Of a stretch of 64,000 bases of DNA, positions 47,389 to 63,494 are shown one piece after another; position 1 is the first letter of the stretch, and every line of letters begins with the position of its first letter. The notes under the pieces are model-generated. The model was not told the DNA's origin and did not search any database. It saw nothing but the letters and a program-made list of their open reading frames with translations. The position numbers were made by a program, and so were the translations under genes. This stretch comes from Lophium mytilinum (Eukaryota): the NCBI GenBank assembly GCA_010093605.1, contig MU004195.1, forward strand, positions 310,001 to 374,000, read 5' to 3'.

Positions 47389-47994
47389 CTACGACCACAA
47401 ATTGCGCACTACTGCTGCCGCCATAAGAACTCCCAGAAGAGTGCGGATCACCCCCAGCACCCGCTCGCTCCCGAAGTACAAATGCGCATTCAAGAGGAGA
47501 GAGGGAAGCAGAACAGCGACAACAACCACCGCAAGCGTCCTGTTTACAGCCACAAAGCCAGCCAACTCGTGCTCCGCAAGCTCCTCTTCTTCCACCACTT
47601 CTAGGTACTGGCGGAGGGTCTGTGCGATCCGCTCCAACGTCTCCCGGGCAGTCATGCCGTTCCTGATACCATGACCGACGGCGAGGTGGACGCGGAGGTC
47701 GAGCGTCTCCTCGAGGCTGGCGGCGACGGGCTCCAGGTTGTCGAAGTCGCCGGCGGGGTCGTGCGCCAGGTGCCGGAACGCACGGTTTTCGCTCTGCACG
47801 AGGAGGGTGGTGATTAGGGCGTGGAGGTCCGCGATTATGCCCGTCGCGGTCTCATTTTCCACTTCGCGGCAGACGGTGGCGTAGACGGGAGAAGTTCGTC
47901 TGAGCTCCGCGCGCCGCTGCTCGACCACGAAGGCCACGGTGGCGTTCTGTGGCTCGGACGCGGCGGGAGAGGTGGTGCGGGGGGTGTCCGACAT
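47389..47994 (-). CDS. Array member 1 (201 aa): module A, partial module B, hydrophobic C-terminal tail
   Basis: N-half is similar to 48685-49152 (TVAFVVEQRRAELRRTSPVYATVCREVE). LDLRVHLAVGHGIRNGMTARETLERIAQT aligns to module B. Two TM-like segments at the end. Confidence 0.7.
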   Translation of the reverse strand: MSDTPRTTSPAASEPQNATVAFVVEQRRAELRRTSPVYATVCREVENETATGIIADLHALITTLLVQSENRAFRHLAHDPAGDFDNLEPVAASLEETLDLRVHLAVGHGIRNGMTARETLERIAQTLRQYLEVVEEEELAEHELAGFVAVNRTLAVVVVAVLLPSLLLNAHLYFGSERVLGVIRTLLGVLMAAAVVRNLWS

Positions 47995-48684
47995 GTTGGT
48001 GGATGTGGAGGATGTTTGACGCTAGATAGAGGTGTTAATAGGCTTGAAGTGGGTCGAGGACTGAGCCTGCTTGGGGTGATTGTGCAAACACTTACTTTGT
48101 GGAGTTGGTGTTTTGCTGAAGAAGGAAGTTTGGCTGTGCGAGCGGACTTATAAGTAGCGGATGCGAAGCTTTGTCGGCCGCCGAAGAGCCGGTGTGGAGG
48201 AGTGAAGGTGCTAGTGAAGGTGCTTGCTTAGGGCTGAGGAGCTGCAAGTACTGGACTTTGGGCGGCCATTGAGCTACTTCCTATTGATTATTCACGCTTT
48301 CACTAAGCAGCGGCGTCAAGTTGAGCACACTGCTGAAGCGGTGAGGCTGGAGATCGGGCAGTTTCGCAGGTACGCCACATTCACTTCGGCGCTGAGAGGT
48401 GGCCAATATAGCTATATGTTGCACTGATACGCCAATCACAAAAGGACGGAGAGATCTTCAATTCAGTGAGTCAAAAGGAGCAGTAATACTAGTCTTGATA
48501 TCGATATGACTATCTAAAAATGAAACAGACGAGAAGAAACATCGAAATAATCCCTGGACCCTGGGAGAACGAGGAACACCCCTAGTCTACCCCGTAGGTG
48601 CTCTGAAAAAACAACAGACAGTGCAATCTACGCTTTCTAAGTCGACCAAAAACATCGGGCCCCTGAGCCGCGAGTGATAGTCGT

Positions 48685-49152
48685 CTAGTTGCCAGCCAGG
48701 AGGTGATCGATCAAGGTCCACATATCAGACACAGTGCCAGTAGCCGTGCCGTTTGCTACCTGGTCTGTGACTGTGGCGTACACTGCTGAGGTCCTTTTCA
48801 GGTTTAGGCGACGCTGAATGACAAGGTATGCCATTGTTTGGCCCTTGCTCCACGGTGGTATGGTGGCTGTATCATTATTCTCGGCGTCTGTCGTAGCTGC
48901 CTCTGAATCTTCTTCCTCCTCTCGTAATGCTCGCTCTCTCAAGCTTGCGTTTTCGTTTTCGACAAGGAGGCGGTCGACCAAGGCGTACAGCTCCCTGAGT
49001 GGGTTTCTTGCTATACCCCGTTCCACTTCTCTGGCGACCGTCGCGTAGGCAGGGTAAGTCTGCCTCAGCTCCTGGCGCCGCTGCTTGACCGCGAAAGCTA
49101 CTGTCTCGTTGGCAGGCTCCGAGGAAGAGATGGCGTTGGTGTTGCTCGACAT
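48685..49152 (-). CDS. Array member 2 (155 aa): two tandem module-A copies
   Basis: Internal repeat TVAFAVKQRRQELRQTYPAYATVAREVERGIA / TMAYLVIQRRLNLKRTSAVYATVTDQVANGTA. Paralogue of 47389-47994. Confidence 0.7.
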   Translation of the reverse strand: MSSNTNAISSSEPANETVAFAVKQRRQELRQTYPAYATVAREVERGIARNPLRELYALVDRLLVENENASLRERALREEEEDSEAATTDAENNDTATIPPWSKGQTMAYLVIQRRLNLKRTSAVYATVTDQVANGTATGTVSDMWTLIDHLLAGN

Positions 49153-49689
49153 CTTGCGGTTCCAGATGTAAGGCTGGGAGTTTTTAGCGGAAGAGATAGG
49201 TCAGGGGCTCGGCCGTCAAGCGAGCCAAATGAAAGACAAACCTTGAGTACGTGGAGCGGAGTTGATCTGCTGGACAAAAAGAGCTCTGAAGTAAAGCTTC
49301 CGGTCCTTGTGGCTATACGAACGACTGGTGTGGTGGTGCCGTGGAGAGGTAGGCGTCGTTTTGCAAGGAAGATCTGGAGCTGGAACCTCGAGGGCACTTT
49401 ATATATGCCGATGTGGATTATTAGATATTCACTGCCTTGGCTGTGTTTACAACATGCCTAGCTATCGGCGCAGACTTCGCGCTATTGGTGAGACTATGAG
49501 CCCAGAAACCACCTGGCAAGTAGCTATTTGTTCACCTCTTGTTGGTATTACTGTATTACACACCGGTACGTCGACGAATGATCCTTGAGAATCAGGTATA
49601 TAGCAAACCTGCAGCACTATAGTAGAAGATTGAATACTCCACGAATCTGCTTGGGGTGTCCCGATCTGCTTTTGGAACTCTAAACACAT

Positions 49690-61063: not shown

Positions 61064-61407
61064 GGAGGGAGTATCGATGTTGGTGTAATGTGGTGTGTTG
61101 TGTTGTGGTGTCTGGTGGAATAGAAATGTAAAACAACGAAGAAATAAAGAACGAGGCTCTAAATAGTGCAAGCTTCATGTTTGATGGACATTCACGTAAA
61201 CCTCGCGGCCTGTTGACGCCCCCCGCGTCCCAATGAGGGCAGTGAAAGTTGACCTCTTCCACAGGTAGCGACTTAAGAGTGGGCTGCACGCTTCAAATAG
61301 GCCTGGAAAGCTTAATGATAGTGTGTGGTTACAGTGACAGGCCACAAATCTGGGCACACTGGTACGCCACTGGTTGGGGTTACTCCATAGGGTTCCGAAT
61401 ACTCAAG

Positions 61408-61665
61408 GACGATGTCAAGCTTTAAGTAGTGCAGATTAGACTGCCTCTTGACTTGTTGCTTGCTCAGCAGTCAGGCTACCCCCTACAGTGGTGTTGAATG
61501 AGCAACTTTGGAGTTTAGTAGTACCAGATTCGTGTGTCTAGACTTACGGACGTCTAAAGACGATGTCGAATTTCAAGCAGTGCAGATTGGACTGCCTTTT
61601 GACTAATGACCTGCTTAGTAGCAAAGCCACCCCCTACATTGGCGTTGAGTGGGCAAATTGGAGCC
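61408..61665. repeat. Two-copy 151-bp-period direct repeat related to the 49.7-50.4 kb repeat
   Basis: GACGATGTC...AGTGCAGATT.GACTGCC..TTGACT...CCCCTACA.TGG.GTTGA at ~61408 and ~61559. Confidence 0.8.
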
Positions 61666-61975
61666 GGATTCGTGCCAGACTTGTGGCCTAGGAATGTAAG
61701 TAGGCCTCAACTAGTGTAATCAACAAACTAAGAGTTTTGAGTATTAAACTTGAAGTCGGAAGCTATAAAAACACATATTCACGGGATATTATGATTCTAG
61801 AGGACTTTGATGCAGAGAAGTTTGAACTTGTGAGGGAGTCTACCTAGGATGAGGGGAATACCATGTACCTATCCGCTCTACTGCTTCACTCCTGCTTCCT
61901 AGTTTCAGACGGATGTTTCGAAGCCTTCGGAAAATCTGGGGAACATGACCTGGGATCACCGATCGTTCCGTCCAG

Positions 61976-63494
61976 CTATCCATCTAGTTGCTTGGCTTCT
62001 TTGGGAAAGAACTTCGACACGTAACGCGAGGGTAGGTTCAGCTTGCCAGGCTGAGCTTCCACTGGCTCACTCATCGCTGGTACCCGAGCTTCCACACGCT
62101 TCTCACTGTGCTCCTCCCCGGCACCCTTGGGCTGGAACTTCTTTGGCAACTCGCGCGGCTTCTGGGGGTCTCCAGGTGCGGCGAGAACGACGGGCAAGTT
62201 TGGCTCTACAGCTCCTAGGCCAGGCATCGCCGTAGGACGGCCGAGCTGGCGATCCGAGCGCATCGTGGTCTTCGACACGAGCGAACTCCTGTCGCCGAGC
62301 TTCTCGGAGGCTGACTTGGGAGCAAACTTCTTGGGAAGCTGGCGTGTCGTCTGGGCATGGCCAAGAGCGTTGAAGCCGCTGTTGGGCTGTGTGAGCACTG
62401 TCTCACCCGCTGTTTGGAAACCCGTCGTCTGTGTGGGCATATTGGGTCCACGAAACTCCCATGGAGTAGAGTAGTGCTTCTCAGCCGCCGCTTTGACAAT
62501 GGCCCTGAACCCATCCTGCTCGATTCCTTGGTCTTTGCCCCACTGAAGCAGGTCGACAATCACAGGTTCTGACAGTGAAGGATCATCTGGGTTGCCCCAG
62601 GAAGTGCCCCAGCAGGCCGTAGTCCGGACGGCCACGTGAACCAACTCCACAAGCTTAAGGCCATGATAGAGGCCAGTGTGGACGTATTTATCGAGGATCG
62701 CGTTGATGAAGTTGACTTCGGCGTCGGTAGCTTTGTGGGCAGGCGTTCCGCGCACATCCTCAATCTTGTTGAGCTCGTCGGGTGTCATGGCGCCGGTGGC
62801 GGCTGCGAAGATGTGTCTCATGATGCCCTGCACATGGATGCGGTTGGCCTCGTCGGTAGCGCGACGGGCAGCGTCCTCCTCCCACTTCGAGTTGTGGTGC
62901 TTCACCAACGTCTGGTTGACTTCGCCGAACTTTGCGTGATCCTGCTGCGTGCCAACACCTCGCGCCACTCTATTGAGAAGCGCGCCAAAATGTGGGTCGT
63001 TGCGGGAGGCCTCGAGCAGGGACTTGTTCACCGAATGCGCCACTTCCTCGTTGAGTGGGGTGTAGTGGTTTGGGTGTGGATAGAACGCGGCGTCGGGTTC
63101 TGCCTGACTTGGATGAAAGATGGCAGCGCTCGCAGTGAGCTTGGAGTGGTTTTCGGCCATGACGGGGCCTTTGCCTTGTTGCTGCTGCTGTGGGGGGGAG
63201 TTGTCTCTGGCAACACTTCCGCTGCCTCGGTGCTGCGCTTGGGTGTTCTGCGAGCCACTGGCAGGATGAACTGTGGAAGCTGGAGTAGGGCGCGCTGAAT
63301 AGTTAGGGTCCTTCCAGAAGTTTATGTGACCGGGTGTGATGCTGTCGTCGCTATTGAATGAGCCGGGGAGGGAGGGGGGAGACTCGCGGCGCTCGGTGAT
63401 GGGGAGCAGCTGGTTAGTGGCCTAGGAGTGGTCAGTTCGCTCTCTCAAATCTACAGACATTGAAACAAAATGGAGTGGGAGGCGCTCTTACCAT
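61976..63494 (-). CDS. Array member 7 (~482 aa): module A + one module B + LPKKFxPK-repeat tail; ATG-only exon 1, intron 63422-63491
   Basis: ATG|GTAAGA...CTGAC...CTAG|GCCACTAAC extends the ORF by 87 codons. The extension (GSFNSDDSITPGHINFWKDPNYSARP) matches member 4 (GSAYNGDGTIPDHRNHWQSPNYDARP). Confidence 0.8.

Follow-up and report, generated by a model that had tools for sequence, protein, structure and literature searches.

What does a cluster of seven related genes do when its proteins match no described family? The question is raised by a 64-kb window of Lophium mytilinum, the window being the whole stretch of DNA that was analysed. Positions 47389-63494 of it hold seven minus-strand genes, here called g47, g48, g52, g55, g57, g59 and g62. 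All of them are long open frames. An earlier note on this DNA described them as diverged, largely intact paralogues put together from two helical modules, A and B, and proposed that they form a diversifying locus of allorecognition, regulated cell death or meiotic drive. The paralogy and the modules are borne out by BLASTP, by alignment and by a control with hidden Markov models (HMMs), and the frames are indeed intact, at 155-516 codons. The proposed role fares less well, and a different one is suggested below.

Seven paralogues built from two modules

All-vs-all BLASTP was run over eight open reading frames (ORFs), namely the seven genes and one further ORF at 50.8 kb. In brief, g57 and g59 align over their full length (3e-40, 29% identity), and g55 and g62 align at 7e-19 in a match that includes their common N-terminal region. 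Further links join g57 to g62 (2e-14), g55 to g59 (2e-12) and g59 to g62 (5e-12). The g47 protein matches g48 through both copies of module A in the latter, at 5e-18 for the first and 2e-12 for the second, and module A also links g48 to g62 (7e-5) and g52 to g59 (3e-4). A MAFFT alignment of 11 pieces resolves into two clean blocks, modules A and B. We did not find any DNA-level repeat between the array genes, and the similarity is therefore visible at the protein level only, in keeping with the earlier note.

As a chance control, HMMs made from strong members were run against all 620 stop-to-stop ORFs of at least 50 amino acids (aa) in the six frames of the window. The A-HMM, built from g57, g59 and g62 only, recovers the g48 domain at E 5.8e-7 and that of g52 at E 7.8e-5, with the best unrelated ORF at 0.66. 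The B-HMM, built from seven copies in g55, g57, g59 and g62, finds g52 at E 5.3e-3 over HMM positions 8-81, with the best unrelated ORF at 3. Profile significance among the modules, a check that the earlier note had named, is obtained for most of them. Module B of g52 is a marginal case, and g47, which is not significant against the A-HMM (E 1.4), joins the family only through g48. A relationship between A and B was rejected, and the two are treated as unrelated modules, since hhalign compares them at E 0.34. The 50.8 kb ORF was likewise rejected as a family member, by BLASTP and by hhalign. The seven genes are thus paralogues built from two independent helical modules.

The modules are combined in different ways along the array. 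The gene g47 (47389-47994, 201 aa) encodes module A (47761-47964), a helical stretch and two C-terminal hydrophobic segments (about 47404-47568). It had been read as A followed by a variant module, B-prime, and a transmembrane (TM) segment. Module A stands through the match to g48, and the TM-like segments are seen as well. The stretch after A looks like the first two helices of B, but is not significant (HMM E 9.1; hhalign P 0.099 over 29 columns), and B-prime was given up as unsupported. In g48 (48685-49152, 155 aa) the protein consists of two copies of module A (A1 48925-49128, A2 48688-48879). The gene g52 (52553-53518, 321 aa) has an N-terminus of its own, followed by A (53030-53254), B (52790-53038) and a basic proline-rich tail.

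The remaining four genes begin with an N-terminal region of biased composition. In g55 (54961-56336) this region is rich in G/Q/S/P (55690-56247) and no full module A follows. By hhalign there is a weak indication (P 0.033 over 16 columns) that part of the first A helix may survive here; B1 (55408-55680), which is acidic, and B2 (54964-55230), which is basic, come next. Both g57 and g59 have the order N-terminal region, A, B, B. The region of g57 (57335-58886) is G/P/N/Q-rich and carries octapeptide repeats; it is followed by module A (58150-58378) and by two B modules, of which B1 (57791-58048) is acidic and B2 (57338-57592) basic. In g59 (59513-61063) the region is G/P/H/Q-rich, with A at 60410-60643, B1 at 60035-60289 and a basic B2 at 59516-59773. 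The g62 gene (61976-63494) encodes an N-terminal region like that of g55, then A (62852-63076), B (62462-62728) and a tail of 160 aa in which LPKKF.PK-type motifs are repeated.

Predicted folds and searches for relatives

The AlphaFold2 (AF2) model of the A-B part of g57, made from an 11-row alignment, has a mean predicted local distance difference test (pLDDT) score of 82.4 and a predicted template modelling (pTM) score of 0.49. The module blocks mostly score 83-95, and a block over a loop inside B scores 63. Helices are placed at residues 12-28, 30-40 and 46-68 in A, and at 111-130, 135-148, 164-177 and 182-195 in B. In this prediction A is a three-helix module and B a four-helix bundle of about 85 residues. 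Because of the pTM of 0.49, the two are not taken as confidently packed on each other. The model of the A-A protein g48 (pLDDT 76, pTM 0.66) suggests that its two copies of A pack together. It should be noted that the AF2 confidence was obtained from shallow alignments. A complex prediction for B1 and B2 of g57, made without controls and without supplied alignments, scored 0.01.

AlphaFold followed by Foldseek, another check named in the earlier note, yields confident folds and no characterised family; both models have 0 matches to PDB at E<=0.001. VIA-align against 48,161 chains gave no convincing match, and the matches listed include neither HeLo/MLKL nor the death fold or Bcl-2. HeLo, HELL and MLKL (PF14479/PF17111) have no Pfam match in the array either, HELL being likewise absent from the fold-search matches listed. 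The whole array ORFs have no Pfam match at E<=1, and no meaningful one appears at E<=10 for five isolated B modules and four whole relatives. An NCBIfam scan of the array proteins returned no match, and a PDB sequence profile search returned one match only, at E 3.6. The ESM Atlas held no usable match by features, and all of its structure rows had a template modelling score of 0.34 or below.

The conserved columns of the modules are hydrophobic, Gly, Pro, Trp and one Arg or Asn. With no polar constellation among them, and with no Pfam or NCBIfam match, the modules are read as non-enzymatic, and the earlier note's failure to recognise an enzyme or NTPase domain agrees with this. In the databases searched, modules A and B are unmatched to known families; they are new in that sense only, and no new mechanism is implied. 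The supplements of PMC9815663 (files 9 and 10 excluded) do not mention Lophium, Mytilinidion or the accession prefixes, and we found no mention of the locus-tag prefixes in the papers searched; no other search for a prior description was made.

Among known small helical folds, the Cas11/Cmr5-type small-subunit bundles (Cas7-11 insertion 8d9g_B; Cmr5 2zop_A and 4gkf_B) have no sequence relation to the modules and score below the bar set for helical bundles. As the host is eukaryotic, the likeness most likely reflects a common helix arrangement and not homology. Module B also recalls the Clr5 domain (PF14420), which we take to be a short helical fungal domain with a ..KWG.. motif at the end of a helix. 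This candidate was rejected. Clr5 has no Pfam match at E<=10 on the isolated B modules and whole relatives, nor at E<=1 on the whole ORFs, and module B differs from it in having four helices over about 85 residues.

Distribution, gene order and constraint

The profile of the 11-piece module alignment was scored against 1,835,955,588 representative proteins at E<=0.001. Nine proteins were found and seven of them are real, namely three Lophium representatives and four proteins from Mytilinidion resinicola. The Lophium matches are P0004 (g59), P0005 (g62) and P0006 (g48 and g47 together). The other two proteins, P0010 and P0011, are tandem-repeat proteins from ENA contigs and were rejected as false positives; their single repeats score 1.9-7.1 bits, and they also match 15 and 11 Pfam families, respectively, none at the curated cut-off. 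The description of the array as lineage-specific agrees with a family seen in two fungi among all the proteins scored, and its description as domain-shuffled is supported as well. The earlier note also thought that the array might continue beyond the window. Since the profile search found no further Lophium member, nothing suggests that it runs past the window edge. A search for fused forms in 5416 longer candidates (780-2225 aa) gave none at E<=10, which is weak evidence.

The M. resinicola proteins are a g62-like fragment of 181 aa (P0008, KAF2811764), a g52-like protein (P0009, KAF2811767), a g57-like protein (P0003, locus tag _475279) and a g55-like protein (P0007, KAF2811766, _475280). 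The accession or locus-tag numbers of these four orthologues run on without a gap and repeat the gene order of the window. Orthologues of g59, g47 and g48 were not found in M. resinicola by the profile search. In global alignments the orthologues are 58% (g57), 53% (g55), 53% (g52) and 64% (g62 fragment) identical. By region, identity is 47-74% in the modules, 24-44% in the linkers of g57 and g55, 62% in the A-B linker of g62, and 32-47% in the tails of g62 and g52. The N-terminal region of g57 is 65% identical to that of its orthologue, which is above the value for the B modules of the same protein.

Among the paralogues, the proportion of non-synonymous differences (pN, 0.32-0.47) is lower than that of synonymous differences (pS, 0.62-0.73) in all six comparisons; only this direction is used, because synonymous divergence is saturated at such values of pS. 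The baseline for the rate is a neighbouring ORF at 38003-39490, which belongs to an 861-aa FAD-binding protein; its identity to the counterpart in M. resinicola, situated on the same 2,061,775-base contig, amounts to 75%. Against this value the array, at 53-64%, evolves somewhat faster. The g57 and g59 proteins are 29% identical in full-length BLASTP and 34% identical in the A-B region, as against 58% between g57 and its orthologue, and their split therefore predates the split of the two genera.

These comparisons place the modules and the N-terminal region under constraint, with order and content kept in a second genus. With four one-to-one orthologues in order, modules conserved above linkers and pN below pS throughout, the term diversifying is not supported; the picture is closer to an old, constrained family than to an allorecognition locus that diversifies.

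N-terminal regions, charge and membrane segments

The N-terminal 115-142 residues of g55, g57, g59 and g62 consist to 59-67% of G, N, Q, P, H, S, T and Y. A regular-expression scan found N.G.G.Q.N in g57 and g59, and G.G.Q.N in g55, g57 and g59; the octapeptide repeats of g57 are encoded by a 24-nucleotide (nt) tandem repeat at 58679-58731. In g55, g57 and g59 the G/N/Q units are followed by a short beta-prone stretch (IGTQNIYY, IGVQHNTYY, VGHVVNFY), and both elements are conserved in the orthologues. In a six-frame motif scan of the window, in-gene matches occurred in these three genes only. The PP/RHIM core, as NxGxQxGxN or G-phi-Q-phi-G, is present in none of the four N-terminal regions (g55, g57, g59 and g62).

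All five tandem-B proteins pair an acidic B1 (charge -1 to -6) with a basic B2 (+2 to +11). The A modules and the single B modules are acidic or slightly basic, the B of the g52-like protein of M. resinicola being at +2. TM-like windows occur in one of the seven array proteins, g47. No hydrophobic N-terminus of the secretion type was seen in the array sequences.

A possible role for the array

The reading that we favour, at a probability of roughly 0.35, is that the array encodes co-assembling, non-enzymatic proteins whose modules bind, whose G/N/Q-rich N-termini self-associate and one of which is anchored in the membrane. The proteins would be intracellular and work together as an assembly, with A and B as the protein-binding units common to the paralogues. 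Two copies of A may pack together in the A-A protein, and every tandem-B protein has its acidic B1 beside a basic B2. The G/N/Q/P/H-rich N-termini, with their N.G.G.Q.N-type repeats and beta-prone stretch, would drive self-association, and the tail-anchored g47 would tie the assembly to the membrane.

Several points weigh against this. The function is deduced from architecture alone and the interactions are only inferred; the A-B model reaches a pTM of only 0.49, and the membership of g52 in module B is marginal (5e-3). The rate baseline is one neighbouring gene only. The range of two species depends on annotated proteins and on the reach of HMMER, and single diverged modules would fall below the threshold.

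Amyloid-type signalling, regulated cell death or allorecognition would explain the same locus by prion-forming N-terminal repeats, with the modules as sensor or effector domains and with membrane action through g47. We regard this as unlikely. PMC9815663 gives the PP core as NxGxQxGxN; the PP motifs that it reports begin NLRs, mostly at positions 5-9, and have their partners at the C-termini of neighbouring effectors. PMC7885112 gives the core common to PP and RHIM as G-phi-Q-phi-G. As described there, PP-motif clusters of NLRs and effectors (HELLP/PNT1, CgHELLP/SBP/PNT1; PMC7885112, PMC9815663) resemble the array in being clustered adjacent genes with a common short G/N/Q-rich motif, in which polar and hydrophobic residues alternate and around which the protein is presumed to be unfolded. 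The conserved G/N/Q units and beta-prone stretch of g55, g57 and g59 are similar in composition to both published cores, and one member of the array is membrane-anchored, as this explanation would have it.

Against this explanation, NLR, HeLo-like, HELL, lipase and PNP domains are all missing from the array by Pfam, and NACHT, NB-ARC and HeLo-like domains are absent from the eight array ORFs and from 20 other long ORFs of the window. The motif lacks the G-phi-Q-phi-G core, and it lies 40-100 residues from the N-terminus of proteins that are not NLRs, farther in than the published motifs. The genes that carry it are mutually paralogous, and in the window scan it does not extend across unrelated architectures. 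Stable one-to-one orthologues also speak against a hypervariable locus. Judged on the sequences, the N-termini are like amyloid signalling motifs in composition and rhythm but do not belong to that class, and the amyloid label of the earlier note is a resemblance only.

The same explanation could draw on a HET-domain gene (42457-44433, plus strand; Pfam PF06985, E 4e-30), which is situated one gene and about 3 kb from the array and does not belong to the family. HET genes are numerous in such fungi, so this adjacency says little and is weak evidence. What the HET incompatibility genes share with the array is neighbourhood only; no HET domain is found in the seven proteins at E<=1, and their orthologues are stable from one genus to the other. 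The array genes, with no HET, NLR or HeLo domain and no core motif, give no direct support to allorecognition, cell death or drive.

It is also improbable that the genes encode lineage-specific nuclear regulators or nucleic-acid binders, whose Q/N/P-rich N-termini would be activation or condensate domains and whose basic B2 would bind DNA or RNA. The charge of B2, basic in each of the five tandem-B proteins, fits such a role. However, Foldseek has no match at E<=0.001, the other modules (A, B1 and the single copies of B) are acidic or carry at most a slight positive charge, no nuclear localisation signal was noted in the module proteins, and g47 is membrane-anchored.

Less probable again is amyloid-like signalling that is independent of NLRs and combines a PP-like N-terminal templating motif in three to four paralogues with two new helical domains. 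The motif would then consist of the N.G.G.Q.N repeats and a following strand of the I-G-x-Q-x-N-x-Y-Y type, and the proteins would co-assemble with the A-only adaptors and the tail-anchored A protein and act on the membrane. If true, this would be a cell-fate or defence pathway made wholly of parts not seen elsewhere.

Functionless or decaying orphan ORFs, or artefacts of annotation, are a very improbable explanation: although no homologue was found beyond two genera and the public models are inconsistent (P0006 joins two genes, the N-terminus of P0005 is long and dubious, and P0008 is cut short), the frames are intact, the order of the orthologues is kept in another genus, the modules are conserved above the linkers with pN below pS, an intron position is conserved, and AF2 gives confident models from shallow alignments.

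Co-assembly of non-enzymatic proteins is the reading we retain. Two domains that fold confidently and have no detectable relative are shuffled over the seven genes of the cluster and have lasted through the divergence of two genera; they would mark a piece of fungal cell biology not looked at so far. If the N-terminal repeats template each other, amyloid-type signalling would extend beyond NLR/effector pairs. If they do not, the array would still be a small model for the origin, duplication and recombination of domains within one locus.

Gene structure and public models

Three of the genes have a phase-0 GTAAGA intron of 58-70 nt directly after the ATG. It measures 62 nt in g55 (ATG 56334-56336, intron 56272-56333), 58 nt in g57 (ATG 58884-58886, intron 58826-58883) and 70 nt in g62 (ATG 63492-63494, intron 63422-63491). 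These introns contain a CTAAC or CTGAC branch site, and the second exon begins with S/A-T-N. The g47 gene is preceded by a canonical intron (GTAAGT...TAG) that ends at 48022, 27 nt before the ATG, the same distance as that from the intron to an internal ATG in g55 and g57. We did not find an ATG-plus-intron structure upstream of g59.

The public models P0005 (g62) and P0006 (g48 and g47) are letter-for-letter products of the window DNA and come from a contig of 1,734,399 bases, and P0005 splices g62 at the same intron as predicted here. P0006, deposited with 372 aa, fuses g48 and g47 across an intron of about 560 nt, which removes the conserved second half of A2. As this half is in frame and conserved with respect to A1 and g47, we read g48 and g47 as two genes. 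Under the two-gene reading, the short canonical intron before the g47 ATG, at about 48022-48095, would lie in the 5' untranslated region of g47.

In the tail of g62 (61979-62461) a (Q/E)LPKKF.PK-type motif occurs twice, with a looser third copy, and is kept in the M. resinicola fragment P0008. Similar LP(Q/K)(E/K)(L/F) strings precede B2 in P0003 and P0007, the orthologues of g57 and g55, and, more loosely, in g57 itself. Based on this similarity, the tail may be a remnant of a B1-B2 linker.

Neighbouring features of the window

Inside the array, a 251-aa frame on the minus strand (50814-51569) is unrelated to A and B and has no Pfam match. It is probably not annotated, because the accessions KAF2491405 and KAF2491410 leave four slots between them, which match g52, g55, g57 and g59.

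Between g48 and g52, positions 49746-50390 hold five tandem units of a degenerate repeat of about 150 nt. Related units stand in three further array spacers: 54434-54470, where the unit is inverted, 59281-59319 and 61411-61601. In sequencing run X1, for which the label RNA is a guess, contigs match at two places only, 46500-46884 and the repeat at about 61330-61700, and none lies on an array gene. Many X1 contigs match the latter copy at 90-95% identity and with high summed depth, so the repeat is probably a dispersed high-copy element. Rfam gave no match on 46000-64000 at E<=0.1.

A 97-nt tandem duplication (1.9 copies, 83% matches) at 46595-46959 overlaps an inverted repeat with 83-nt arms. 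It is found directly downstream of a plus-strand gene at 44675-46397, before the end of the array. A 5,687-letter X1 contig ends on 46500-46884 with 0 differences. The gene at 44675-46397 comprises two adjacent frames of 302 and 264 aa, which are probably one gene with an intron. They are K/E/P/S-rich, with stretches of the KKRKR and KKRR types, and Pfam gave no match for them.

Farther from the array, a 526-aa frame on the minus strand (38003-39580) has many hydrophobic segments. It is part of P0012, an 861-aa protein with an FAD/NAD(P)-binding domain, whose relatives in other fungi and in metagenomes are about 40% identical.

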